Shown: positions 10,348 to 50,991 of the stretch, piece after piece
How positions within the stretch are numbered: the stretch's first letter is position 1
Layout: each line of letters opens with the position of its first letter
From: Enterobacter phage EC-F2
Sequence record: MN508624.2
Length of the DNA: 64,000 nucleotides
Strand: one strand, 5' to 3'
Program-made: the position numbers and the translations under genes
The notes under the pieces: model-generated
The model's database searches: none
Seen by the model: only the letters and a program-made list of their open reading frames with translations
What the model was told of the DNA's origin: nothing

Positions 10348-10983
10348 ATGAAACACATCATTTATAAAATAACAAACACTATAAACAATAGGATCTATAT
10401 CGGCGCACATTCGACTGATGATATTAACGATTCATACATGGGTTCTGGTAAAGCAATCAAAGCGGCCCAACGAAAATATGGAATTGACAACTTCGTAAAA
10501 GAGATCTTGTTCGTGTTTGATACAAGAGAAGAAATGTATGAAAAGGAAAGGGAGATTGTAAACCTAGATTTCGTCAATCGTCCAGATGTGTACAATATGG
10601 GTGTGGGTGGTTCTGGTGGCCCTATGCTGGGAATGTTTCATTCAGAAGAAAAGAAACATGAAATATCCAAAAGAACTCGTGAAAGAATGACACCAGAAGT
10701 AAAAGAACGCCTTTCAAAAATAAAAACAGGGAAGAAGCAATCAGAAGAATCCAACAGGAAGCGTTCAGAGACTATCAAAGCTATGTACAAGGGTTCTGCA
10801 TTCGACAGAACCGGATCTAAGCTCACAGACGCGCACAAGGCCAAAATAAGCCGTTCTGTGTCGATAGATGGAGTTGTTTACGCAAGCGGTTCCGATGCTT
10901 CTAAAGCGTTGGGGCTTTCTCGATCTGGCCTCGATTACAGGCTAAAAAGTGACAAGTATCCTGATTGGAAATTTGTTGCATAA
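10348..10983 (+). mobile_element. segD: GIY-YIG homing endonuclease (segD-like), freestanding between genes 23 and 24
   Basis: The N-terminal KITNTINNRIYIGAHS...YMGSG motif is GIY-YIG class. The C-terminal basic region is a DNA-binding tail. It occupies the same slot as T4 segD and is preceded by TATAAATA. Confidence 0.8.
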
Positions 10984-11020
10984 ATACACAATATAATCCT
11001 CTAATTCAGGAACCAAAGAA

Positions 11021-12319
11021 ATGAGTGATAAACACTACACAATTCACAAGTTGATGCGTCAGTCTGCGCTTCCGTCTGGTAAACGAGAAAAAGTTATCAA
11101 CGAAGCAACAGGCACGACCGACATCAACGTACAGAACACGCGCCCAGAACTGGTTTCTTTGACTCGCGCGGTTAACAACCTGATCTATCATGAACTGGTT
11201 GCTGTACAAGAAACAGAACTCCCTGTTGCAACACTGTTCGGTGTTCGCTATCGCAACCCTAATGGTGATATGACTTTCTCCAGTGCTGCAACCTATTCAG
11301 GCCGAATCTCTGGACGTACAGACATCGACGAAATCGATCTGACTAAAGCCTACGTTAAAGGTGATTTGTTCAAGCATGATGGTACTGACGTTGTTTATGA
11401 GGTTATCGCACCGATTACCCTGAACACTCTGGATACTGACAAAGACACCGCGATCATGAAAGCTGTGTTCCAAAGCAAAATTCGACTGGTTAGCGAAGCC
11501 GCTGATACTTCTAAGTATGAAACCAGTGAAGATATCGCGTCAACCTCCTTCCAGATGGATCGCTGGAATATTCCGGTACGCTCGCGTAAGTTTAAAACCG
11601 AAATGACGGTTGAACTGATGCAGGATTTGGAAGCGAACCAGTTCGAAGCTGATGGGGTGATCGAAGACATTCTGGGAACCGTGGCAAGTGAAGAAGTCAA
11701 CAAAGACATTATTCAAACTCTGATCACCGTTTCCAAACGTTACAACGTGGATGGACTCGTTACGGATGGTATTTTTGACGGCACTACCGCATACACCGCG
11801 AAGGATGCTCCAGCATTGGGTCGTATCCTGTATCAATTAGCGTGTGAAATGGGGCAGGAAATGAATAGAACAACTTCATTTGATGCTACCTACGTCCTCG
11901 CTACAGCGCGTGTTGTAGGCATCCTGGCTGCGTCTGGTTGGATGCACGAAACCGACGAACAACACCCACTGGCAACAGGTAAGCTGAACAACGGTTATTA
12001 TGTCTATACAGACACCAACAGCCCGTTCGATTATATGCTGACTGGTTGCAAATATGATCTGGGTGATATGGATCACGTAGGCTCTCTGTTCTTCGCTCCG
12101 TATACCGAAGCTGATGAAGCAGGTTCAATCAAAGTATCCGTAGATCCGGCATCCCTGCAACCGAAAGTTGCTATTCTGATGCGTTACGGTCTTTCCGTGA
12201 ACCCATACACAGCAGAAAGCGAATCCGATCACCTGATCAAAGGTGATGATTGGTCTGCTCTTGCAGGTAAATCTAAGCTGAGTCAGATCGTAGGTATTAA
12301 GTTACCTAAACTGGGTTAA
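11021..12319 (+). CDS. 24: Capsid vertex protein (gp24)
   Basis: 432 aa (T4 gp24 is 427 aa), a gp23 paralogue in the conserved position. Confidence 0.9.
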   Translation: MSDKHYTIHKLMRQSALPSGKREKVINEATGTTDINVQNTRPELVSLTRAVNNLIYHELVAVQETELPVATLFGVRYRNPNGDMTFSSAATYSGRISGRTDIDEIDLTKAYVKGDLFKHDGTDVVYEVIAPITLNTLDTDKDTAIMKAVFQSKIRLVSEAADTSKYETSEDIASTSFQMDRWNIPVRSRKFKTEMTVELMQDLEANQFEADGVIEDILGTVASEEVNKDIIQTLITVSKRYNVDGLVTDGIFDGTTAYTAKDAPALGRILYQLACEMGQEMNRTTSFDATYVLATARVVGILAASGWMHETDEQHPLATGKLNNGYYVYTDTNSPFDYMLTGCKYDLGDMDHVGSLFFAPYTEADEAGSIKVSVDPASLQPKVAILMRYGLSVNPYTAESESDHLIKGDDWSALAGKSKLSQIVGIKLPKLG

Positions 12320-12342
12320 CAAGTTTTGTTTTGAGAAGACCA

Positions 12343-12370
12343 TTATAGTAATAAAGATCTATAAGGTCAA
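12343..12370 (-). promoter_or_regulatory. Mirror-image sigma70-type promoter on the minus strand (TTGACC-16-TATAAT) in the left palindrome arm
   Basis: The reverse complement of 12343-12370 reads TTGACC..N16..TATAAT. It would fire leftwards into the 3' end of gene 24 as antisense. Confidence 0.45.
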
Positions 12371-12548
12371 ACGAGCGAAGCGAGTTTTCACGAACGAAGT
12401 GAGTGATGGGTAAGTACGATGTACTGTTTATAATATTTATATTTTATATATAGAGAAAACAGTACATTTCCGTATACTTTTTAACCAACATTCACTCACT
12501 ACGTTCGTTCATGTACTCGCTTCGCTCGTAGATTTGACTTCTTGATCT
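12355..12548. repeat. ~195-bp imperfect palindrome (long inverted repeat) with an AT-rich centre
   Basis: Arms such as CGAGCGAAGCGAGT, ACGAACGAAGTGAGTGA and GTACTGTTT on the left reappear as reverse complements on the right. A 28-nt AT-rich loop sits at the centre near 12451. Confidence 0.85.
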
Positions 12549-12561
12549 AACTGGTTATAAT
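12534..12561 (+). promoter_or_regulatory. Sigma70-type promoter for uvsY (TTGACT-16-TATAAT) inside the right palindrome arm
   Basis: Near-consensus -35 and -10 hexamers sit 24 nt upstream of the uvsY ATG. Confidence 0.6.
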
Positions 12562-12584
12562 GTTACTTTGTTTTGAGGTGATAC

Positions 12585-13007
12585 ATGGCTGAACTAAAAC
12601 TTGAAGATCTACAGGCTGAACTTGAAGAGGATATGCGTATTGATCCGTTGAAGTTACAAAGCGAATCAGCAGACATTCCGAAGATTTGGTCAAAATGGCT
12701 TCGATACCATTCGAATGCTAAGAAAAAACTTATTCAACTCCAGGCGAAGAAAGAAGCGATTGTAAAAGATCGGTTACTGTTCTACACTGGTAGACACGAA
12801 AGCGAAATGACCGATGTCATTTACACTGGTTCGGGTGAAATCAAAATTGCTATCTCCGGTGATCCTAAGACCGTTGAAGTTAACAAGCTGATCCAATACT
12901 TCGAACTGATTGCAGAGTTTACCGGAAAAGCGCTGGATATCGTTAAGAACAAAGGCTACTCCATCAAAAACATGTTGGAGATCCGTAAACTTGAGAGTGG
13001 TGCATAA
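12585..13007 (+). CDS. uvsY: Recombination mediator UvsY
   Basis: 140 aa. MAELKLEDLQAELEED...KIWSKWLRYHS...LLFYTGR aligns with T4 UvsY (MRLEDLQEELKKD...LYSKWLNKHS...RLDYYSGR). Confidence 0.9.
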   Translation: MAELKLEDLQAELEEDMRIDPLKLQSESADIPKIWSKWLRYHSNAKKKLIQLQAKKEAIVKDRLLFYTGRHESEMTDVIYTGSGEIKIAISGDPKTVEVNKLIQYFELIAEFTGKALDIVKNKGYSIKNMLEIRKLESGA

Positions 13008-39446: not shown

Positions 39447-42400
39447 ATGGTAGCTAAATCATTCCGCGCCACAAGTGGCCTTGATGCTGCTGGCGAAAAA
39501 GTTATCAACGTTGGTAAAGCATCGCGCTCCGTGTTGAGTGACGGCGTGAACGTTGACTTTTTTAACGAATTTAACACCGTACAACAGTACGATTCAACCC
39601 GTGGCTATGCTGCTTTCATGGCTATCATTTACGCGCGTCGTATCTGGTACGCTCGCGCTGATATCGCATCACCTGCGGGGGCTTTCGATGAAACAAAGTG
39701 GATCGCAACACGTAATGATCCAAAATGGGTATATAACAACGTAACCAATCCAGACGGCTTGCCTGTTGAGTCTGGTACGTACATGATGTGTGATGGGCGA
39801 TTCTCTGAACTATCGTACATTCTGCCAGATTCCCCGATTGAAGGTGATATTGTAACCTTTAAAGACGGTGGCGGTCTTGCTGGTGTCAACAGCATTCTGG
39901 TACGTTCAAACACTCGTCAGATCCGTCTGCGTGATATTCAGTCAAGCTCTTACCGACTGACTCACCCATATATGACCGTAGCGTTTATCTTCAACGGTAA
40001 CTTATGGCGTGTAGCGGAAATGCGTGATAACCGCGATTCTCAGTTTGTAAACGCAACTGGTTTGCTTCCTTTCCAAATGCAAGCGGGTATGGTAACATTC
40101 CGTAACAGCGGTACAGGTAAAATCACCCTCCAGTTGCCGAAGTATGCAAACGATGGTGATTCAATCACAACCTACGATCTGGATCGTCTTGCTTCGGTGA
40201 ACGTTGCGACTCTGCAAGTTTATCCCGGTAGCGGACACACGATCAGTTATGACGGTATCAATAACGTACCCTCTGTGACTTCACAGCGTTCCGGTTATGG
40301 TATTTTCATGTTCGATCAGGCTAATAACCGTTGGGTTGTTTATGACGGTGATCAGCGCGTTCGTCTGCGTCGTATCAGTGATGACCTGAACATGTTGCCG
40401 AACGATTACGTGTTCATCACTCCGATTGCTGTCAACCCACCAACTGTACGTAATGTAACGCTGACTCTTCCGCAAGATGTTGCAGAAGGTGATCGCGTAT
40501 ATATCAGTATGTACATGATGGGGAAAACGCAGAACTGTACAATCAAAGTTAAAGATGGTTCCGGTGAAAAGATCCGCACCAATAAAAACATGATGCAGTT
40601 CCCACAGCGTAAGGATTATCCGCCTGATGACTGGTTCAGTGTTGACTCTCTGACTTTCAACGCCGATACTGACTATCTTCCATATATGGAACTGTCATAT
40701 CTGAAAGCTACGAAAGAATGGGTAGTTGCACAGTATCGCCCGATCATTGAACGTGTCGATCCAACAAACCGTTCTCGTCTGGGTGTTATCGCACTGGCTA
40801 CACAGGCAGAAGTAAACAAAAACTGGGAAGATTTGCCGTCTGATGAACTGGCAGTAACCCCGCGCACATTGGCGAATAAAACCGCTACTGAAACGCGTCG
40901 TGGTATCGCTCGCCTGGCAACAACTGCGGAAGTTAACCAGAACACGACAGCAACCTTCCTTGATGACGTGATCGTGACGCCTAAAAAGCTGAACGAACGA
41001 TCAGCAACAGAAGATCGTCGTGGGGTGCTGGAAATCGCAACTCAGGCAGAAACAAACGCTGGTACTGATGACACTACCGCAATCACGCCTAAAAAGCTCG
41101 ACACACGCCGCGCGACCGAAACCCTAGCAGGTATCGGAAAACTCGTTACAACGGGGGCTACGACAGCGGAGGGGGCTTTACGTGGGGATGCTGGTACGAA
41201 CGTCTACAACTTCAATAACGGTGTTGATCTGATCACTCCGAAATCATTGAACGAGAAGACGGCGACCGAAAAGTCAAAAGGTCTGGTTGTTCTGGCGACT
41301 GAAAACGAAGTGGTGACTGGTGCTGCTGCGGGATCTGCTTCAATGCCGATCGTAGTAACTCCTGAAATGTTGCATCGCAAAACGTCTACTGAAACGCGTA
41401 TCGGATTGATTGAGATCGCAACCCAGACAGAAACGAACACGGGAACCGATGATCTTCGTGCGGTAACGCCTAAGAAGCTGAACGATCGCAAGGCTACTGA
41501 ATCGCTTGATGGTATTATTGCCCTCGCTACTACTGCGGAAGTTGCAGCAGGCACAGTGACGAATAAGGCAGTGGTTCCGGTTAAGCTGAAAGAGTTCTTC
41601 GACGTTACGAGTCATGTTGCGGTTGCAACTGCTGATGGTTTAACTCAGTCCGGTACTATCTGGACAACGATTAACCTGGGGATTGCGTCTGCTACTGAAA
41701 CACAGCGCGGTACTCTGCGCGTAGCGACTCAGGGTGAAACTGATGCGGGTACTCTGGATAACGTGGTTATCACGCCTAAGAAGCTGCAAGCGAAGAAAGC
41801 GACTGATACCGCCGAAGGTATTATTCGTTGTGCGACTAACGCGGAAGCGGGTGCTGGTACTGCTACTAACCTGGCAATTACTCCGGCTACCATGCAGTTC
41901 TTGAACGGTACTGATCCGGCATGGGGTGCAACGACAACTCGACGCGGTGCGGTGTTCATCACTACCAAATCGAATACGTTCATCGGTGATAATCTGGTTG
42001 GTTCTACTCAGCCCGTAGATAGCTATCTGGAAGATTTCTACGCTGTATCGCCTCGCGGTCTGAACTTTGCTCTACAAAACTTCTTACCGTTGAACGCAAC
42101 AGCACAGAACAGCCTGAAACTGGGCGGTGTGGTAGCTGCAAGCTGGATGCGTCGTGATGCAGATCAAACCGTAACGGGCAACAACACGTTCAACGGTACA
42201 AGCAACTTCGTTGGTAACGTAACCACTAACGGGACTCTGACGGCTAACGCTGCGGTAACTGTTAACAACACCGTAACCACGAACAATAACATTAACCAGT
42301 CTGCGAAAGCAAACACGGTTTATGCTAATACTGTTTTGAGTACAGCAACCGCTGGAACTAAAAACTTGCTTCGTACTTTCCGTGGTGGCGTGACGGATAC

Positions 42401-43106
42401 TACATGGCATGAAACTGTTCAGGGAACTACGTATCGCCTGGCAACTGGCACAACCGACACGACCGACGTTCTGACTGTTGGTGATGTATCTAACGGCACA
42501 ATGGCGTACTCCGGTACTACTCTGCGTCTGAATGGTAAAGCACTGGCTAACACGAACGCAACAGGTGATGTGACCATTGCAAGTGATGCAAGTCCTACGG
42601 TACAATTACGAACCGCTGCAACTAACGGTTGGAACGGTGTAACAATCAGTAATGATAACGGTGTGACTACTGCGACCGTGATCAACACCCGAAACTTTAC
42701 CCAGCATCTTGACAGTACCTATGTCAATACAGCGGGCGATACTATGACTGGTGCGCTGTCAGTTAGCGTAAACGGTACGGGTGGACGCTTTACCAGTGTG
42801 AGCGGTACGGCACATGTTCAGGCGGGTGATTTCTCTGGGAACGTCCAGAAAATGCGCTTAACTGGCATTGACGATAAGGTATTGACTGAGTTCAACATCA
42901 ATATCACCGATTACAACAAAGCGATGATCAACGGAAACCTGATTTATCATGCGGGTCGTCGTCCGACTCCTGCGGAAATCGGTGCTGTTGCGCTGGTGGG
43001 TTCAACCGTTGATACTCTGGTTGTTCGCGACTACATCAAAATCGGTAACGTGAAAATCTTCGCAAATCCAGTCACTAAGGCTTGTGAATTTGTGTGGGAG
43101 GAATAA
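39447..43106 (+). CDS. 34: Long tail fibre proximal subunit (gp34)
   Basis: 1219 aa. The N-terminus resembles T4 gp34 (DAAGEKVINVGKASRSVLSDGVNVDFF..NTVQQYD). The C-terminal region has motifs shared with gp37 (FRGG..DT.WHETVQG.TYRLATG). Confidence 0.9.
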   Translation: MVAKSFRATSGLDAAGEKVINVGKASRSVLSDGVNVDFFNEFNTVQQYDSTRGYAAFMAIIYARRIWYARADIASPAGAFDETKWIATRNDPKWVYNNVTNPDGLPVESGTYMMCDGRFSELSYILPDSPIEGDIVTFKDGGGLAGVNSILVRSNTRQIRLRDIQSSSYRLTHPYMTVAFIFNGNLWRVAEMRDNRDSQFVNATGLLPFQMQAGMVTFRNSGTGKITLQLPKYANDGDSITTYDLDRLASVNVATLQVYPGSGHTISYDGINNVPSVTSQRSGYGIFMFDQANNRWVVYDGDQRVRLRRISDDLNMLPNDYVFITPIAVNPPTVRNVTLTLPQDVAEGDRVYISMYMMGKTQNCTIKVKDGSGEKIRTNKNMMQFPQRKDYPPDDWFSVDSLTFNADTDYLPYMELSYLKATKEWVVAQYRPIIERVDPTNRSRLGVIALATQAEVNKNWEDLPSDELAVTPRTLANKTATETRRGIARLATTAEVNQNTTATFLDDVIVTPKKLNERSATEDRRGVLEIATQAETNAGTDDTTAITPKKLDTRRATETLAGIGKLVTTGATTAEGALRGDAGTNVYNFNNGVDLITPKSLNEKTATEKSKGLVVLATENEVVTGAAAGSASMPIVVTPEMLHRKTSTETRIGLIEIATQTETNTGTDDLRAVTPKKLNDRKATESLDGIIALATTAEVAAGTVTNKAVVPVKLKEFFDVTSHVAVATADGLTQSGTIWTTINLGIASATETQRGTLRVATQGETDAGTLDNVVITPKKLQAKKATDTAEGIIRCATNAEAGAGTATNLAITPATMQFLNGTDPAWGATTTRRGAVFITTKSNTFIGDNLVGSTQPVDSYLEDFYAVSPRGLNFALQNFLPLNATAQNSLKLGGVVAASWMRRDADQTVTGNNTFNGTSNFVGNVTTNGTLTANAAVTVNNTVTTNNNINQSAKANTVYANTVLSTATAGTKNLLRTFRGGVTDTTWHETVQGTTYRLATGTTDTTDVLTVGDVSNGTMAYSGTTLRLNGKALANTNATGDVTIASDASPTVQLRTAATNGWNGVTISNDNGVTTATVINTRNFTQHLDSTYVNTAGDTMTGALSVSVNGTGGRFTSVSGTAHVQAGDFSGNVQKMRLTGIDDKVLTEFNINITDYNKAMINGNLIYHAGRRPTPAEIGAVALVGSTVDTLVVRDYIKIGNVKIFANPVTKACEFVWEE

Positions 43107-43111
43107 TTTAA

Positions 43112-44704
43112 ATGGCGAATAACGAATTTATGGCGTTATTCGGCCCTGATAGTTTCACGGCGAGTGTGTTTTCAGAAGCAAACGCCGTGAAATATCGCCT
43201 TGTTGTCCGTGGAACGAATAACGATTCTGCGGTCAACTCGGTTGAGGTATCTATTAACGGGGCTGATATTATTAACAGACGAACACAAGCTGCTCGCGGA
43301 ATTAACCTGGCTGTCATTGATGGAACAACTTTAGCATTATTGGATTACAAAGCATTCGATATGTATGGTGATCCTGCTACGAACGGGAATGCGATTAAAG
43401 ACTACCTGAATTCACTTCCAGCGAACAGAATTGTGTGTTTTTATACTTTCGATGCTATCAAAAGTGACGATAACTTTTTAGCAACAATGAGGAAAATAGG
43501 TTCTGTTGCGTGGCCTGAAACTCGGTTCTTTAATATCCCGATCACCACAACCAACTATTCTCACCGTTCATCCTATTCAGCTATCTATTCATCCACGATG
43601 AAAAAGATCTGTATGGAAAACTTTGTCGGTGGTTCTGGTAGTCTGAAAGACAATACAACGAGTTTTGTTGAAGTTGTGTTTGATGAATTCAGTGATATCG
43701 GGGTAACGGGTATTCCAGAAAGAATGGTTGATGATGTTCAGACATACCAGAACAGCGGGGATCTTTACGGCTTCCATACTTACGGGCTATGGTCAATTGG
43801 TAATGATGTTTATCTGGGTGATATCTTCAAATTCACTGGGGATTTGTATTGTTCTAAAGAACTCCGTGATGCTGGGGGAGAAGTTCACCTGTATATGTGG
43901 ACAGAAAACGGTAGCGGACAATGGATCACGTCATCCATTCTTCGAACAACCGGACTAGCCCCCGATCAGTGGCATTCGTTATCAGGATATTTCACCATCC
44001 CGACCGATCCGCTAAATGCTCGAATGGGTTCACAGGTATATCATTACCCGTCAACTGTTAAAGTCGGGCTGGCGCAATGTCGTAACGTCCAGATCACAAA
44101 AGTACCGCGTGAAGAAATAAACCGCAATGGTGCTGCTGTTGGTGTGAATGGTGTTAGAATGCAGACACTTTCCGAAGTGGATTCAAGCGGAAATGAAAAC
44201 CCGATTGATAAATTGCTTTCTCTGCCTGTTTCGCCTACTGGTGTTGTCAGTGATAAGAAAATCATTTCACATAACTTTGCTGAACTTGATTATATTGTTT
44301 CTGATCCGGTTGAATACACTTCAACCAGTACAACAGAATATCAGTTTAAAGAATGGACTGCTACCCAGCAAGCGGCGGTAACGAAAGCATCACTAAGCAG
44401 TTATGGCTTAAAAGCTGGTGATACGATCCGTATGCAATGCCAAATGAAACGCGATGCAAACGCAATCGCCAACAATAAAGGTGCATATATCGTAATGCAG
44501 TTCTGGGACGCGAATAATACGTATATTTCAGGGATCAACATGCGTGATGTTGGTACGATACCTAACGTATATTCATTCTATAAAAACGAAGGTGTTGTTC
44601 CTGCTGGGGCGGTTACTTTCGATTTCGGTTTATATCGTTATCCAAACAGCACAAACATCGGTACGGTATCCGCTAAAGACGTTAAACTGTCAATCGTGAG
44701 ATAA
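43112..44704 (+). CDS. 35: Long tail fibre hinge protein (gp35)
   Basis: 530 aa, positioned between 34 and the distal fibre genes. Larger than T4 gp35 (372 aa). Confidence 0.7.
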   Translation: MANNEFMALFGPDSFTASVFSEANAVKYRLVVRGTNNDSAVNSVEVSINGADIINRRTQAARGINLAVIDGTTLALLDYKAFDMYGDPATNGNAIKDYLNSLPANRIVCFYTFDAIKSDDNFLATMRKIGSVAWPETRFFNIPITTTNYSHRSSYSAIYSSTMKKICMENFVGGSGSLKDNTTSFVEVVFDEFSDIGVTGIPERMVDDVQTYQNSGDLYGFHTYGLWSIGNDVYLGDIFKFTGDLYCSKELRDAGGEVHLYMWTENGSGQWITSSILRTTGLAPDQWHSLSGYFTIPTDPLNARMGSQVYHYPSTVKVGLAQCRNVQITKVPREEINRNGAAVGVNGVRMQTLSEVDSSGNENPIDKLLSLPVSPTGVVSDKKIISHNFAELDYIVSDPVEYTSTSTTEYQFKEWTATQQAAVTKASLSSYGLKAGDTIRMQCQMKRDANAIANNKGAYIVMQFWDANNTYISGINMRDVGTIPNVYSFYKNEGVVPAGAVTFDFGLYRYPNSTNIGTVSAKDVKLSIVR

Positions 44705-44725
44705 AGGGGCTTTCGCCCCTTTTTC
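44705..44725 (+). terminator. Rho-independent terminator after gene 35
   Basis: AGGGGCTTTCGCCCCT followed by TTTTC, then a CATAAATA late-like motif. Confidence 0.7.
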
Positions 44726-44755
44726 ATAAATACAGTCATTACAGGAGAAATTTTT

Positions 44756-46921
44756 ATGGCTGATTTGAAATTAGGTACAACGCTTGGTGGTGCGGGTATC
44801 TGGAGTGCTTCTAACCTTCCTCTATTGCCCTCTGGTGGACAATTAACGTATAAAGGCTGGAGAGTATACACAGAAAATGATCGACCAACAGCAGAAGATA
44901 TAAATGCCCTCTCGACGATTAACGGCGGGACTGTTGCAAAGAATACTACATTCAGTCAGAACGTGAATGTAGGGCAGGTGTTAACAGCAAATGATATTCT
45001 TTCTAATACTCGCGTACAAATTGCAAGAACAGGCGGTGCGGGTGCAAACTTAACATTTCGTCGTTATGACGTTACCGGAACCCCTTCTTCGGAAATTGGT
45101 ATCATGGATATCAACGTACACAACGGTTCAGGTCAGTTTGTTGGTGCATTTAACGTTAACGCACGTCCAGACGGCGGTAATAAAATATACTTCCGTGCAT
45201 ACAAAGATGGAACACAGAATACATTATTAACTATAGATTCTCAAACTCAACAGGTAACAGTTGAGCAAGGGTCTTTCCGTGTGATTGGGACTTCTGACCT
45301 CGGCGTGACGAACGCTGCATCAATGGCGGTTAGCGGTGCGGTAACTGCGAATACAGTAACCCCAGCAAATTGGGCTAACCATGATGAACGTTATATCACG
45401 GGTATTCCTCGCGGTATGTATGGAACAAGTTTCGGGGCTGCTGTTGTGACTGAAAAGAATGATGTTCTGACAGTAGGCGGTAACATCACCGACGGTCCAT
45501 ATGGTAACACTACGTATTACGGGCAGGTTGTCAACTATCGCCGTACACTGAATACTGGGGTTTCATTAGTTCAAACATACTTCGGGAACGAAATGTGGTT
45601 TCGTCTTGGATCAGGTTCTCCGGGTGCGTGGTCGTGGAACCAGGGTGATGCTAATGGCTGGCGACGTGTATACGATACGGTCACTCCACCAACTCCGGCA
45701 GAAGTGGGGGCAGTAAACAAAGCTGGTGATACCATGAGTGGTGTTTTAACCCTGGCGTCTACTGGTCAACCGCTTAAAACGCAAGGAGGCGGTATTTTTG
45801 CGAATGACGGAAACGTGTATATCAATAAAAGCGGATTTGCTGGATGGATTGATGCTTTATTCTTGAAAAATACAGGTGGTACTGTAACAGGAACAATTAA
45901 CCAGACAGGCGGGTATTTTGATACATCTACCGAAGGGAGAGGTTCATGGGCTTCACAAAACACCGCAAAAGCTCCAATTTTCCAAACCATTAACACAACA
46001 GCAACTTCCGAATACTGGCCTATTGTTAAACAGTATTACACACAAGCTGGTGGTGCTTGGTCTATGGGTACGTTGGTAAACACTAACCGATTTACCGTTC
46101 ATTACCGCACGAGTTCGGTAGATCGGCAGTGGTATTTTGACAATTCAGGTGAATTTGTATCATCTGGTGAAATTATTACCACCTCGGTAAACGGATTTCG
46201 TATCGCATATGGCAACACCGGATCATTTATTCGTAGTGACGGAAACAACACGTATTTCCTGTTGACAAATAGCGGTGATGTTTATGGTGGATATAACAAT
46301 TTGCGTCCGATTTATTACAGCAACACCACGGGTGCTGTTACAATGGGACATACGTTATCCGTTAATGGTCGTATTAGTCAATCTAGTAGTTATATCGACG
46401 ATGGACAATTATTGTTAAATGGTAGTGGTAGCGGACGTATAGATTTTATTCGCAGTGGTGCAAACCCTCGCGATATGACTATGTTCCATGCTGGTGATGC
46501 TTCTCGTGGAAACCGTATAGAACTTGCTGATACAACATCATATCTGGTTTATTTTGAGCGTCATCCGTCAAGTGGCATTCAGTTGGTAATGAACGGTAAT
46601 GGTAGTTTTAACGATGTATATATTCGTTCTGATGAAAGACTGAAAAGTAATTTCAGTAAGATTGAAAATGCATTGGATAAAGTTGATTTACTTGATGGTA
46701 TGGTGTACGACAAAGCAAATCATATTGGGGGTGAAGAAACTACCCGTGAGGCTGGTTTAGTCGCACAACAACTGCAAGAAGTATTACCGGAAGCCGTTAA
46801 GAAAGGTGTTGATGGTGAACAGAACGAGATCTTAACTGTTTCTTCTTCTGCTGTTATCGCCTTGCTGGTTAACGCGGTAAAAGAACTCCGTGAGGAAGTC
46901 AGGGAACTTAAATCCCGCTAA
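44756..46921 (+). CDS. Distal long-tail-fibre protein: gp36-like N-terminus, gp37-like shaft, C-terminal S74-type intramolecular chaperone (SDERLK)
   Basis: The N-terminus MADLKLGTTLGG..IWS..NLPLLPSG..TYKGWRVYTENDRP matches T4 gp36 (MADLKVGSTTGGSVIWHQGNFPLNPAG..LYKSFKIYSEYNKP). The shaft shares NTYF(L/M)LT..G..YG....LRP and GDTMSG motifs with its downstream paralogue and with gp34. The C-terminus DVYIRSDERLKSN...LVNAVKELREEV is an auto-cleaving chaperone module. Confidence 0.7.
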   Translation: MADLKLGTTLGGAGIWSASNLPLLPSGGQLTYKGWRVYTENDRPTAEDINALSTINGGTVAKNTTFSQNVNVGQVLTANDILSNTRVQIARTGGAGANLTFRRYDVTGTPSSEIGIMDINVHNGSGQFVGAFNVNARPDGGNKIYFRAYKDGTQNTLLTIDSQTQQVTVEQGSFRVIGTSDLGVTNAASMAVSGAVTANTVTPANWANHDERYITGIPRGMYGTSFGAAVVTEKNDVLTVGGNITDGPYGNTTYYGQVVNYRRTLNTGVSLVQTYFGNEMWFRLGSGSPGAWSWNQGDANGWRRVYDTVTPPTPAEVGAVNKAGDTMSGVLTLASTGQPLKTQGGGIFANDGNVYINKSGFAGWIDALFLKNTGGTVTGTINQTGGYFDTSTEGRGSWASQNTAKAPIFQTINTTATSEYWPIVKQYYTQAGGAWSMGTLVNTNRFTVHYRTSSVDRQWYFDNSGEFVSSGEIITTSVNGFRIAYGNTGSFIRSDGNNTYFLLTNSGDVYGGYNNLRPIYYSNTTGAVTMGHTLSVNGRISQSSSYIDDGQLLLNGSGSGRIDFIRSGANPRDMTMFHAGDASRGNRIELADTTSYLVYFERHPSSGIQLVMNGNGSFNDVYIRSDERLKSNFSKIENALDKVDLLDGMVYDKANHIGGEETTREAGLVAQQLQEVLPEAVKKGVDGEQNEILTVSSSAVIALLVNAVKELREEVRELKSR

Positions 46922-46924
46922 TTA

Positions 46925-46950
46925 AAAGCCCTTCGGGGCTTTTTCTTTTT
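46925..46950 (+). terminator. Rho-independent terminator between the two distal fibre genes
   Basis: AAGCCCTTCGGGGCTT followed by TTTCTTTTT. Confidence 0.7.
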
Positions 46951-46957
46951 ATAAATA
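46950..46957 (+). promoter_or_regulatory. T4-type late promoter TATAAATA
   Basis: Exact consensus 27 nt upstream of the gene 37 ATG. Confidence 0.6.
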
Positions 46958-46983
46958 TCATAAAAGCATTTGAGGATCTAATA

Positions 46984-49197
46984 ATGGCAGATTTAAAAGC
47001 GGGTACTACCGTTGGCGGTAATACTATCTGGAGTCAGGCGAACTTGCCTTTGCTCCCTTCTGGAAACACAATCACATATAAAGGCTTTAAAATCTACACC
47101 GAAAACGATAAGCCAACAAAGGCAGAAATCGGATTAGGCAACGTAACGAACGATGCACAGGTGAAGAAAGCTGGCGACGATATGACCGGATCGTTGAACA
47201 TTACGGGCGCAAACAGTCAATTAACTGTTCCTTATCGTCTGTTGATGCAACGCGCGGTTGCTGGCGATCCGTATGTGTTATTTGTTCGTCCAGATAACAA
47301 CCCTGTATCAAACGGCTATCCGTCAAGCACTCTTCGAGTAATGACTATCACTGCACGTACCGCAACAACAGCAGATCCGGTTTCTGGTGCTAAACTGGCT
47401 AACGTATTAGCAGATCAGACAGCACAGGGTAACGGATCACTAACATTACAAGCATTTGCAGCCCCAAATACAACCACAGGCGCAAGCGGTGCGCGAACAG
47501 CAGAGATTTACCTAAACGGCAACGGTGAAATATCTTTTATCGGAAGTGGGCTGAACATTGGCATGACAACCAGGGTCAATGGTACTTTGTTTGGTACACA
47601 AATGGCAATCAAAGGAGATTCTAACCGAAATCTGTTCTTCCAGGATGCTGGTGGTAATGAACTCGGTTTGATCTATGCCGATACAGGAAAGAACTTATAT
47701 GTTCGTACTGGTGGCGGTGCATACGCAACCAGATTTGCATCTGATGGAACTTTAGTTCTCGCTAACCATCTAACTGTTCCTGGACAGGCTACATTTAATG
47801 GTCTGGGTGTGTTCAATAACCGTGCTTCTGTAGGCGTAGATTACGATTCACAAGGAACAAACTCAGCAATCCTTCGTATTGATACAAGCGGGGATGGAAA
47901 CGCAGTTGGTGATGGTGTTACTCACTTTGGATATAAAGACAGCAACGGACGATACAACCATTATTTCCGTGGTACTGGTTCGACTTTCATCAACACCAAA
48001 TTAGGTCTTAACGTAAACGTACCATCGTATTATAACGACGTTCCACAGGGCACACCAGCACAATATTTCTTGCCTACTGTTGGTCAGGGCGGGAAAAACT
48101 ATTTGCGTCAGTTCCGAGGCGGTAACGCGGACACAATCTGGCATGAAACTGTTCAGGGCGGTACTTATCGTTTAGCAACAGGTAGCACTGATGCGCAGGA
48201 AGAATTGCAGATCTCTACTGCTGGTTATATTCGAGGTCGTAACGAAATTCAATCGGCATCATGTGGTTCTGGTGGACAGTTCCGCGCGGTACAAGGAAAC
48301 TATGGATTCTTTATCCGAAATGATGGTGGTAACACCTATTTCATGCTTACTGAATCTGGAAACCCTTACGGCGCATGGGGTGATCTTCGCCCGTTGGTGA
48401 TTAGCAACGGCACTGGTACTGTGTCTATGAACAACGGTGTTAACGTTGGTGGTGGTTTGGATGTAAGCGGCGCTACTAAGTTCAGCAATGGTATCGGTTG
48501 TGGTACTCCAAACGGATTGGGCGCAAACGCGATATCACTAGGTGATACTGATACTGGTTTTGTTCAAGAAGGCGATGGTATTCTCAACGCTTATGCAAAC
48601 AGTCAACGAATCCAACGATGGACAACGGGGGCTACAGCAGTCTATAAGCAGTTGCAGGTTCAGGGTATTAACGGGCCAGCATTGCTTCTGAATAACACAG
48701 CAAGCAATCAGTCTGTATATATGCTGTTGCAATATGCAGGTAGTAACGCGGGTTATTTGGGTTTTGGTGGTTCTGATAATACCATGTCAATGCACAACTA
48801 TCAGACGAATACAACGATACAATTACGTACTTCCGATCTGTATATGAACCGTGCATTATATGGTGAAAGTACAGGCAACTTTACCGATGTGTATATTCGT
48901 TCGGATCGCCGTCTGAAATCAAATCTGGTTGAGATCAAAGACGCTCTGTTTAAAGTAGAACAGCTTACGGGCTATGTATACGATAAACAATCAAAAGACG
49001 CTGATGAAATTGTATATCACCGTGAATCGGGGTTGATTGCGCAAGATGTTCAGGAAGTATTGCCTGATGCAGTCAAAGAAGATCATAACTCAGGTATGCT
49101 TACGATTTCTCCTGCTGGCGTTAACGCGCTTCTGGTCAACGCAATTAACGAACTGCGCGAACGTCTGGAAGCAATCGAAAACAAATTAGGGGCTTAA
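46984..49197 (+). CDS. 37: Long tail fibre distal subunit (gp37, T2/S16 type) with a gp36-like N-terminus and a C-terminal intramolecular chaperone (SDRRLK)
   Basis: [26 protein letters not shown] aligns with T4 gp37 [25 protein letters not shown]. The N-terminus [12 protein letters not shown] is gp36-like. The C-terminus [13 protein letters not shown]...[16 protein letters not shown] is an S74-type module. It is followed by a gp38 adhesin, as in T2. Confidence 0.8.
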   Translation: [737 protein letters not shown]

Positions 49198-49222
49198 TGC
49201 CCCTCTTTAAGAGGAATATTTT

Positions 49223-50035
49223 ATGGCTGTTGTAGGCGTACCTGGTTGGATCGGGTCTTCTGCTGTAAGCGAAACGGGTGAAAGATGGATGTCCGCTGCT
49301 GCGGGACAACTTCGATTATCTGCTGCTGGTTATATGTCACGATTTGCGGGGATCTCCCGCGAACAATCAATAACGATTTCCGCAAGCAACGCATACGCAT
49401 GGTCAACCCTGGTCAATCAGATTAAATCATTGGGTGTGTCCGGTGGTGCATTCAAAATTACTGTTGTCGGGAACATCGTTTCAAGCAGTGCTGGTGCTCC
49501 GTGCCTTAACTTCACATCTGATCTTGCGGGTGTTGATTATATTGAACTGATCATTAACTCTGGTGTAGGTGTTATGGGTCGTGGTGGTGCGGGTGGTGGT
49601 GATAACACAGGTGGCGCGTATTCATCCGGCGAAAATGGTGGTGTCGGTATTACTAACGCGATCGGAAACAAACTGCGAATAACGAACAATGGTTATATTG
49701 CGGGTGGTGGTGGTGGTGGTGGCCTGGTAAACATGCCAACTTCTACATCACGACGTGTACAGGTATCCGGTGGTGGTGGTCGACCTTTCGGTGCTGCTGG
49801 TACAGGTGGTTATGACGGTAACGGTACAGCGGCAACAATTTCCGCTCCTGGTTCCGGTGGTTCTTCGAGTCTATCACAAGCTGGTGCGGGTGGTAACTTA
49901 GGTGCGGCTGGTCAATATCCACCTAAAGCCGATGGTCGTCTGGAAGCTCAAGCGGCGGGTGCTGCGGGTGCTGCGGTTAACGGTAACGCGCCAACGTGGA
50001 GAACTGTAGGGACAATTTACGGTTCGAGAGTTTAA
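49223..50035 (+). CDS. 38: Receptor-recognising adhesin gp38 (T2/S16 type) with glycine-rich motifs and variable segments
   Basis: The N-terminus MAVVGVPGWIGSSAVSETGERWMSAAAGQLRL is near-identical to T2-type gp38. There are multiple GRMs (GRGGAGGGDNTGG, GGGGGGG, SGGGGRPFGAAGTGG, GAGGNLGAAGQ). Confidence 0.9.
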   Translation: MAVVGVPGWIGSSAVSETGERWMSAAAGQLRLSAAGYMSRFAGISREQSITISASNAYAWSTLVNQIKSLGVSGGAFKITVVGNIVSSSAGAPCLNFTSDLAGVDYIELIINSGVGVMGRGGAGGGDNTGGAYSSGENGGVGITNAIGNKLRITNNGYIAGGGGGGGLVNMPTSTSRRVQVSGGGGRPFGAAGTGGYDGNGTAATISAPGSGGSSSLSQAGAGGNLGAAGQYPPKADGRLEAQAAGAAGAAVNGNAPTWRTVGTIYGSRV

Positions 50036-50088
50036 GTAAATTCCTAAATATAATCGGGGGTCGGCATCCCCGAACTTGAGGATTAAAC

Positions 50089-50733
50089 ATGGCGCTATTA
50101 CAAGATAAATTGGCGGTGCTTGAACGGGTAATATCGTTCATCATGGCGGTCAAAACATGGAAACAGTTATTCATTAAATTGGTTCTTATCGTCACTATTT
50201 TCATTATGTTCGTAACATGGTACAAGTGGGATGACTTATTTTCAGTCTGGAAAACATCTTCAAGCGTTATAGACGTGCCGACGATGGAGATTGAAAAGGC
50301 AAAAAAGTTTGAATCCGCATCCATCGAACAGTTAAACATAGTGCATTTAACTACGGGTGCGGATTTTTCGGCAATCTTTGGGTTCAGACCTAAGAATGTC
50401 AATTATTTTGTTGATATAATTGCGTATGAAGGGAAGTTACCGCAACAGATTAACCCGAAAAATCTGGGTGGCTATCCTATAGACAAGACATCGGAAGAGT
50501 ATAATAGACATATAAACGGGCTGTACTATATCTCAGATATTGCAAGCCCGTATCTTCCAACAAAAGACCTTGTTCCGGTAGCATATACCTTTAGTTGTCC
50601 TTATTTCAATCTAGAAAACTACTATTCTGGATCGATTCTAATGGAATGGTATATACAGAAGCCCGAAGTCACCGATACGAAGTTGATGATCGTGTGCAAT
50701 CAGGCCGCTAGAATTTTAGGCAGGGTTCGATGA
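50089..50733 (+). CDS. t: Holin (gp t)
   Basis: 214 aa, collinear with T4 T holin (EQL.IVH..ADFSA...FRPKN.NYFVDIIAYEGKLP....LGGYP.DKT..EY..H.NG...YSCPYFNL.N.Y.G...M.WY....ICAQAARILGR). It has an N-terminal TM segment. Confidence 0.95.
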   Translation: MALLQDKLAVLERVISFIMAVKTWKQLFIKLVLIVTIFIMFVTWYKWDDLFSVWKTSSSVIDVPTMEIEKAKKFESASIEQLNIVHLTTGADFSAIFGFRPKNVNYFVDIIAYEGKLPQQINPKNLGGYPIDKTSEEYNRHINGLYYISDIASPYLPTKDLVPVAYTFSCPYFNLENYYSGSILMEWYIQKPEVTDTKLMIVCNQAARILGRVR

Positions 50734-50991
50734 TAATTTCAGTTTCAAACCGCTTAAAGCCCGATTGATGAAATCTTTTACTTTCGTCATCTGGTTTTTA
50801 TCGTATATGTCCCATACGCGCATGAGTTCGTAAGGTGTCGGAACATATTCATCGTTCCAGTATCCAACATTACCTATCGTAATGCGCCGGAAACCAGCCT
50901 CTACGCTGTGATATACAAAGAACCCAGCCTTACCCACAGGGGCGACTTTAAAACCGCGTGTAGCGGCTTTCATGGCTTCGTCGTGTGTCAT
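50716..50991 (-). CDS. DUF2829 (Tad2-like) small protein, candidate anti-Thoeris/cyclic-nucleotide sponge
   Basis: 91 aa. MTHDEAMKAATRGFKVAPVGKAGFFVY follows the DUF2829 N-terminal pattern (M.F.EAL.ALK.GKKVAR.GWNGKG.FIY). PTPYELMRVWDIY matches the C-terminal PW..SQ.D.LAEDWEIV pattern. Confidence 0.4.
   Translation of the reverse strand: MTHDEAMKAATRGFKVAPVGKAGFFVYHSVEAGFRRITIGNVGYWNDEYVPTPYELMRVWDIYDKNQMTKVKDFINRALSGLKLKLSSNPA

Follow-up and report, generated by a model that had tools for sequence, protein, structure and literature searches.

Two paralogous fibre genes between gp35 and gp38

The stretch of DNA analysed here, called the window, comprises 64,000 nucleotides (nt) of Enterobacter phage EC-F2 (MN508624.2), with a G+C content of about 45%, and our subject is its distal long-tail-fibre locus at 44756..50035. 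Three genes lie there, which like the features within them are on the + strand: two open reading frames (ORFs), ORF1 (44756..46921, 721 amino acids (aa)) and ORF2 (46984..49197, 737 aa), orthologous to the RB43 genes 'gp 36-37.1' and 'gp 36-37.2', and a gp38 adhesin of the T2/S16 polyglycine type (49223..50035, 270 aa). The ORF list gives the order gp34-gp35-ORF1-ORF2-gp38-holin t, with which the PHROG and Pfam assignments agree; NCBIfam returned no name for gp35, ORF1, ORF2 or gp38. Enterobacter phage EC-F1 (MN508623.2), a Pseudotevenvirus, matches the region 43000-50800 at 99.3% identity, and 62 more phage records match it at lower identity, from the hosts Enterobacter, Cronobacter, Citrobacter, Klebsiella and E. 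coli. By its sequence, the source phage is of the T4 type and belongs to the genus Pseudotevenvirus (RB16/RB43 group).

An earlier note on this DNA had described two paralogues of 721 and 737 aa that share a gp36-type N-terminus, a shaft motif and an S74-like C-terminal chaperone, and had proposed to align them. The ORF coordinates proved exact, and BLASTP of ORF1 against ORF2 gave three significant blocks in all, exactly those described. The first covers residues 1-62 of both (58% identity, E 6e-19), the gp36-type anchor, encoded at 44756..44941 in ORF1 with the first-position signature GGAGIWSASN and at 46984..47169 in ORF2 with the second-position signature GGNTIWSQAN. The ORF2 anchor is closer to canonical gp36: residues 1-48 match RB18 gp36 at 56% identity (E 2e-16), and residues 1-101 of ORF1 at 40% (E 1e-18). 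The second block pairs ORF1 481-545 with ORF2 433-497 (49% identity, E 1e-14) and contains the motif NTYF(L/M)LT...LRP. Both proteins have a shaft module of the Gp34_trimer type here (PF21446), at aa 439-521 of ORF1 (46070..46318, including NTYFLLT...LRP; E 1e-18), with PDB matches to Mu gpS (5yvq) and T4 gp34 (4uxe), and at aa 402-473 of ORF2 (48187..48402; E 2e-18), likewise with PDB matches. The third block, ORF1 616-721 against ORF2 631-734 (50% identity, E 1e-26), contains DVYIRSD(E/R)RLKSN ... LVNA..ELRE and belongs to the intramolecular chaperone. Peptidase_S74 (PF13884) scores 52.3 bits at aa 625-682 of ORF1 and 52.4 bits at aa 640-698 of ORF2, for a cut-off of 22. The predicted autocleavage falls between S625 and D626 in ORF1 (DVYIRS/DERLKSN), which leaves a chaperone of aa 626-721 (46631..46921), and between S640 and D641 in ORF2 (DVYIRS/DRRLKSN; chaperone aa 641-737, 48904..49197), and this Ser-Asp motif is conserved in every orthologue examined. 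The C-terminus of ORF1 is 65% identical to that of RB18 gp37.

As the earlier note had also stated, gp38 adjoins ORF2 only, and none lies directly after ORF1. The 270-aa protein matches Pfam GP38 (166 bits, E 1e-48) and Gp38_N (63 bits, E 2e-17; PF05268 and PF21721), and is 46% identical to RB18 gp38 over its full length. ORF2 has a tip of the gp37_trimer type at aa 566-632 (48679..48879; PF20744), presumed to be the gp38-docking region; the match is marginal, at 22.0 bits for a cut-off of 21.7. Pfam gave no gp37_trimer match in ORF1, which skips residues 1088-1158 of RB18 gp37, the gp37_trimer region of about 70 aa before the chaperone that is present in ORF2.

Placed on RB18, ORF1 aligns colinearly to gp36 1-94 and then to gp37 55-169, 938-1088 and 1158-1259, and ORF2 to gp36 1-48 and then to gp37 371-424 and 963-1260, the last segment being colinear with ORF2 438-735. 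Each of the two thus reads as a compressed, colinear mosaic of gp36 N-terminus and gp37. The gp36 body (PF03903, about residues 56-195 of T-even gp36) has no match in residues 1-220 of ORF1 or ORF2, even at E <= 10, for a control score of 139 bits with RB18 gp36. Nor is there a counterpart of the T-even gp37 N-terminus (MATLKQIQFKRSK...), through which gp37 is joined to gp36, residues 1-54 of RB18 gp37 aligning to neither ORF. At this level of comparison, the canonical gp36-gp37 joint is absent from the locus. The idea that ORF1 might simply be an elongated gp36 with the gp37-binding site, which the earlier note had itself considered, finds no support.

ORF1 and ORF2 each have their own terminator-like site and late-promoter box. 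A hairpin and T-run follow gp35, with the box CATAAATA at 44725-44732 (whole element 44705..44732, read from the sequence); this box upstream of ORF1 is a near-consensus variant. A second hairpin and T-run follow ORF1, with the box TATAAATA, a perfect T4-type late-promoter box, at 46950-46957 upstream of ORF2 (whole element 46924..46957). The window contains 8 exact TATAAATA boxes for 2.2 expected by chance, including those upstream of gp34 (39407) and ORF2 (46950). ORF1 has a dN/dS ratio of 0.13-0.27 and ORF2 one of 0.12-0.25, values like those of gp34 and gp35, and such purifying selection argues that both genes are functional.

Tip exchange and natural loss of ORF1

A tblastn census of the gp36-type N-terminus found 1542 places in 1437 phage records; among the matches listed, Pseudotevenvirus records have two copies and others one, except for two Vibrio phages with two. 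The pair is present in every two-gene genome fetched (RB16, RB43, EC-F1, phi5, PF-CE2, Invicta, leE, Margaery, KPN-11i, JC03, Cronuts, Nando, CfP1 and two uncultivated virus genomes (UViGs)), under record labels as varied as 'small/large distal subunit', 'L-shaped tail fiber' and 'hypothetical'. Synteny, that is, a tandem pair between gp35 and gp38 orthologous to that of RB43/RB16, held in 14 fetched genomes.

Conservation along ORF1 is uneven: 97% over the N-terminal 60 aa, about 85% in the chaperone, and only 45 to 50% over residues 330-600. The alignment explains this zone by the exchange of wholly different distal modules. We typed the tips by the last 160 aa upstream of the cleavage site. 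Type A ends ORF1 of the EC-F2 window, EC-F1, phi5, PF-CE2, Invicta, leE, UPEC03 and Nando; type B ends ORF1 of RB16, RB43, KPN-11i, JC03, Margaery and Cronuts, and also ORF2 of RB16 and RB43; type C, which is T2-like, ends ORF2 of the EC-F2 window and of most other phages; and type D ends ORF2 of Nando and Cronuts. The last 13 or so residues upstream of cleavage are conserved across all ORF1 tip types, and the ORF2 N-terminus is about 98% conserved (12 ORF2 sequences compared). A module exchanged directly 5' of a conserved chaperone is, as far as alignments can tell, the pattern of receptor-binding fibres. Moreover, the type-B tip can terminate either ORF, which argues that the ends of ORF1 and ORF2 are positionally equivalent. 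A recurrence of the ORF1 type-A tip as a gp38-capped tip in Klebsiella phage RCIP0032 was considered and rejected, the chaperone alone being in common.

ORF1 can also be missing. In Enterobacter phage Taquito (PQ096441), gp35 and gp38 are separated by one gene only, of 737 aa (locus L009, 6760-8973), whose product starts with ORF1 residues 1-17 and is of the ORF2 type from residue 18; in the DNA, the promoter and first codons of ORF1 lead into ORF2, the junction lying inside the 10-nt microhomology TATCTGGAGT, with the crossover at codons 15-18. A 106-kb metagenome contig (ERZ1035001 NODE-22, 10645-12741; L030 hereafter) has an ORF1 deletion with the crossover near codon 40, and a 270-aa gp38 follows. 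It was among the loci, mostly known genomes, that scans of IMG/VR and of metagenomes with a gp35 alignment returned (7 and 3 loci). In both Taquito and L030, the gp35-end hairpin and CATAAATA element precede the ORF1/ORF2 hybrid gene. From these junctions, the ORF1 body has been deleted at least twice independently, via recombination between the N-terminal repeats. No loss of ORF2 was seen among the genomes examined. To judge by the comparisons as a whole, the core adhesin would be ORF2 with gp38, and ORF1 would be an accessory fibre.

Three records have an ORF1 frameshifted in its N-terminus: Lw1, by a 14-nt deletion (locus L026, ~10630-10690); UPEC03, by a tandem duplication of about 92 nt (L008, 5818-6260); and RB43 NC_007023, by a 1-nt deletion (L025, ~10635-10700), RB43-GVA and AY266307 being intact. 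If real, these frameshifts come from phages recorded on E. coli, and ORF1 could have been lost during propagation there. Taquito, which forms part of a therapeutic cocktail, propagates with a burst size of 13. Resistance of its host maps to rfaQ (lipopolysaccharide inner core), and resistance to its two-fibre relative Nando to wzzB (O-antigen chain length); the hosts differ, and the contrast is suggestive only.

With gp35 as query, a protein search gave 22 homologues of 515-531 aa, the most distant at 41% identity. On the contigs of four of them, the gp34-gp35-...-holin frame is kept and the fibre cassettes differ. POP12 has one MADLK fibre of 800 aa. L019 (11636-16509) has two MADLK fibres (689 and 627 aa), and after each of them comes a Caudo_TAP-like gene with a Pfam score just below the cut-off. 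L020 (11627-16188) also has two MADLK fibres (599 and 652 aa), each with a small ORF without family match behind it. In L022 (11637-16731), a first fibre of 701 aa (PF03903 and Peptidase_S74 among precomputed hits) is followed by a Gp38_N adhesin, then by a Caudo_TAP gene (28.3 bits, above the cut-off) and a second MADLK fibre of 632 aa, similar at its C-terminus to the fibres of L019 and L020. Since the first fibre of such relatives has its own maturation or adhesin partner, a role as internal connector is hard to reconcile with it. The cassette system of these uncultured relatives (L019, L020 and L022) is more diverse than that of cultured Pseudotevenvirus, with mixed maturation systems.

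The N-termini of the fibre pairs were compared in the EC-F2 window, L019, L020 and L022. Anchor residues 11-20 are set by gene position, with GGAGxWxASN in the first gene and GG(N/S)TIWxQ(A/G)N, nearer canonical gp36, in the second, and relatives with a gp35 of only 43-49% identity still have this signature. It suggests two distinct docking contexts. Residues 26-45, for their part, tend to match between the paralogues of one genome (in L022, both read GNSVAYRGFKIYTENDKP), a pattern that would fit gene conversion as well as co-adaptation to a partner in common.

Arrangement of the two fibres at the knee

The earlier note had left it open whether the two proteins form alternative or serially joined half-fibres. 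Of the two possibilities, the comparison favours the alternative, or parallel, one: we read the locus, with a probability of about 0.6, as encoding two independent distal half-fibres of the long tail fibre, each anchored at the gp35 knee by its gp36-type N-terminus. Several observations point this way. Each ORF appears to be a complete, if compressed, mosaic of gp36 N-terminus and gp37, from which the elements of the joint are missing. The ORF1 tip has been swapped between unrelated types while the ORF2 N-terminus stayed about 98% conserved, and in relatives each of the two cassettes brings a chaperone or adhesin of its own. ORF1-less natural recombinants exist, one of which, Taquito, propagates. 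The separate terminators and late-promoter boxes and the purifying selection on both genes argue in the same direction, as does the statement of Trojet et al. (2011, PMC3157838) that the RB43 fibre has the size of one gp37 trimer.

In such an arrangement, each protein would trimerise with the aid of its own C-terminal S74 chaperone, which would then cut itself off after ...DVYIRS. Each trimer would attach by its gp36-type N-terminal segment at the knee; we infer from the T4 literature that this segment docks onto gp35, the presumed partner of both fibres. ORF2, capped by gp38, would be the core and indispensable arm for receptor binding, built like that of T2/S16. ORF1 would be incorporated into virions as an accessory arm, with a distal module that is exchanged between phages and can be lost, and with a putative receptor of its own; it would probably widen or modulate adsorption, for example via a surface glycan. 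A given fibre or knee would thus have ORF1, ORF2 or both, and not the two joined end to end.

Some points weigh against this reading. Literature searches found no proteomic or electron-microscopic evidence for ORF1 in virions, or for its site there. The predicted mature lengths, 625 and 640 aa, sum to about 1265 aa, close to the 1247 aa of T4 gp36 (221 aa) plus gp37 (1026 aa), so that a serial fibre would have a T4-like length. The type-A ORF1 tip has no recognisable globular receptor-binding domain. Taquito and L030 retain ORF1-derived N-terminal codons and so give no strict proof that the native ORF2 N-terminus binds gp35, and the ORF1 frameshifts in Lw1, RB43 NC_007023 and UPEC03 may be sequencing errors. 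Finally, by analogy with the T4 knee and its one tower-like joint domain, a knee shared by two rods would be hard to place.

In a serial fibre, ORF1 would be an enlarged gp36 on gp35, whose post-cleavage C-terminus binds the ORF2 N-terminus, giving gp35-ORF1-ORF2-gp38. Besides the summed length, the gene order, which is that of 36-37-38, agrees with this, as do the labels 'small' and 'large' distal subunits in RB16 and several other records. The conservation of about 13 residues before cleavage in all ORF1 tip types could reflect such a contact; however, a nearly invariant ORF2 N-terminus would need to bind two unrelated ORF1 tips, and the type-B tip is also the gp38-capped end of ORF2 in RB16 and RB43. 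Moreover, ORF2 starts with a gp36-type anchor instead of a T-even gp37 N-terminus, ORF1 has no PF03903 body, in relatives a chaperone-like gene or an adhesin of its own comes after the first fibre, Taquito propagates without the ORF1 body, its fibre being ORF2-type from residue 18, and ORF1 is frameshifted in Lw1, UPEC03 and one RB43 record. We therefore consider serial joining quite unlikely. It is also unlikely that gp38 caps both mature trimers, one adhesin serving two different shafts. The pre-cleavage residues are nearly identical in ORF1 (NGNGSFNDVYIRS) and ORF2 (ESTGNFTDVYIRS), and similar in the gp38-capped gp37 of RB18 and RCIP0032, but they may merely belong to the S74 cleavage site. 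Genes for proteins of the Gp38_N type come directly after those of fibres whose tips differ widely, and both RB43 ORFs have type-B tips (44% identity over 262 aa); yet type-A ORF1 is without the gp37_trimer segment, the 70 or so aa before the chaperone of T2-like gp37 and of ORF2, and gp38 is encoded after ORF2 only. That ORF1 stands outside the long tail fibre, either unassembled or attached elsewhere, for instance at the baseplate or collar, seems very unlikely to us: most of the genomes examined have it intact, with purifying selection acting on it, it starts with the gp36 anchor, a segment that otherwise occurs at the knee only, the window has no second gp35-like gene, and the first-position cassette is conserved in distant relatives. 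This has to be set against the repeated loss or frameshift of ORF1, its promoter box CATAAATA, which is not the consensus TATAAATA, and the possible use of one version alone (Trojet et al. 2011, PMC3157838). Heterotrimers of ORF1 and ORF2 were set aside, the shafts being largely unalignable by BLASTP.

Parallel fibres may also take the form of a branched knee. Every gp35 would then hold an ORF1 and an ORF2 trimer at once, giving 12 distal arms per virion, a sub-model that we regard as rather doubtful; we have similar doubts about its companion idea, that the extra CBM-like domain of the long gp35 (described below) is, or helps to form, a second socket. The position-specific signature at residues 11-20, kept in distant relatives, would fit two docking sites, and the long gp35 occurs in 65 of the 1189 phage records with a gp35 match (among the matches listed, in Pseudotevenvirus), close to the 62 records with an ORF1-type N-terminus, the two sets being compared by number alone. 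Such co-occurrence, however, is a single clade-level event of little statistical weight, and POP12, Taquito and L030 keep the long gp35 with a single fibre. The hybrid N-termini of Taquito and L030 suggest that the anchors are interchangeable. In T4, the single CBM-like domain of the knee, which has one tower-like joint domain, binds the fibritin whisker and not gp36 (preprint 10.64898/2026.03.06.709160). In view of this binding and of the single-fibre phages, the extra domain as second socket was downgraded as main explanation. If the branched knee were true, a virion would have two specificities, in an architecture undescribed for any T4-type phage, and Taquito and other ORF1-less recombinants would be one-armed derivatives.

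The long knee protein and known systems

The knee ('kneecap') protein gp35 of EC-F2 (43112..44704, + strand, 530 aa; PHROG 1154, E 9e-179; Pfam ILEI) is of the long form. It comprises an ILEI/FAM3-like domain, a CBM-like domain D2 (~203-335) and a second, homologous CBM-like domain D3 (~390-530). Residues 5-392 align to the whole 371-aa T-even gp35, and residues 421-503 match the same T-even region again. Profile-profile comparison with hhalign of D2 (203-335) and D3 (390-530) gave a probability of 98.8% (E 6e-17), for 0.1% in the control comparison of domain 1 with domain 3. An AlphaFold2 (AF2) model (mean pLDDT 75) has an ILEI-like domain and two beta-sandwich domains with strand patterns exactly 200 residues apart, and its best fold match in the PDB is a tandem CBM22 pair. 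PDB sequence searches with the ORF1 N-terminus and with gp35 returned no solved gp35 or gp36. Upstream of gp35 lies gp34 (39447-43106, 1219 aa), and downstream of gp38 lies holin t (50089-50733).

The earlier note implied that the arrangement was new, which it is not: it is genus-wide, was annotated in 2003 and was discussed in 2011. GenBank AY266307 (RB43), on record since 2003, names the orthologous pair 'gp 36-37.1' and 'gp 36-37.2', with gp38 after it, and notes that the N-terminus of the first gene is like T2 gp 36 and that the second is 'organized in a similar manner'. Trojet et al. (2011, PMC3157838) called the function of the RB43 fibre-gene duplication unclear, pointed out that the RB43 fibre size indicates a single gp37 trimer per fibre, and raised the possibility that one version alone is expressed or used. 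What is new here is comparative: the two independent ORF1 deletions, the typing of tips, the two-cassette relatives and the duplicated CBM-like domain of gp35.

To a specialist the finding is unsurprising, and its interest is moderate. The locus would be a natural case of one gp36-type anchor carrying two different rods at a T4-type knee, and is a good system for studying partner choice at the gp34-gp35-gp36 joint. Therapeutic cocktails aimed at Enterobacter, Klebsiella and Cronobacter make use of Pseudotevenviruses, among them Nando, Taquito and EC-F1, so that the assignment of fibres to receptors, and the loss of ORF1 by simple recombination between N-terminal repeats, bear on host range, on the routes of bacterial resistance and on fibre engineering. 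Nando and Taquito are an existing pair of phages for an easy test of the role of the second fibre.

RB43 and RB16 share with EC-F2 the order gp34-gp35-ORF1-ORF2-gp38-t, the gp36-type N-termini and the S74 C-termini; RB16 'gp36' is 75% identical to ORF1 over residues 1-385, and the RB43 counterpart of ORF2 55% identical over residues 1-445. They differ in their tips, ORF1 being of type B there and of type A in EC-F2, and ORF2 of type B there and of the T2-like type C in EC-F2, and in gp38, which has 174 aa in RB43 and is the 270-aa polyglycine T2/S16 type in EC-F2. ORF2 with gp38 resembles the T2/S16 distal fibre (PDB 6F45) in its Gp34_trimer module, marginal gp37_trimer tip, S74 chaperone and GP38 adhesin. 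In contrast to T2/S16, EC-F2 has no separate gp36, whose N-terminal 50 or so aa are fused directly to the gp37-like shaft, its fibre is about half as long, and a second paralogous fibre gene precedes ORF2.

Branched lateral tail fibres made of LtfA/LtfB are reportedly carried by the T5-like phages DT57C and DT571/2 (Golomidova et al. 2016, cited in PMC9569957). The likeness lies in two tandem fibre genes, each with an S74-type C-terminal chaperone, which in EC-F2 too would give one fibre system a pair of receptor-binding arms. LtfB of DT57C docks onto LtfA, whereas the EC-F2 ORFs share one kind of anchor and ORF1 appears dispensable; DT57C also belongs to another phage family, with another attachment partner. 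Closer to T4, Aeromonas phage Aeh1 has a duplicated g37 with a small ORF after each copy (Trojet et al. 2011, PMC3157838). By this description, it is another tandem distal-fibre duplication in a T4-type phage and resembles the L019 and L020 loci; unlike Aeh1, EC-F2 has a downstream accessory gene after the second fibre only, and its chaperones are fused, not Tfa-like. Vibrio phage EniLVp02, of another T4-type lineage, has two tandem distal-fibre genes of 1058 and 896 aa (locus L035, 9040-15031), and its record gave two matches to the query with the gp36-type N-terminus; these are not near any gp34/gp35 neighbourhood. Given this tandem pair, distal-fibre duplication is not unique to Pseudotevenvirus.

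A 40-aa module, KNYLRQFRGG...TIWHETVQGGTYRLATG, is shared at 65% identity by gp34 (42324-42443) and ORF2 (aa 359-398, 48058-48177). The same module also occurs in the ORF1 proteins of type B, as a mobile shaft motif of the fibre locus.

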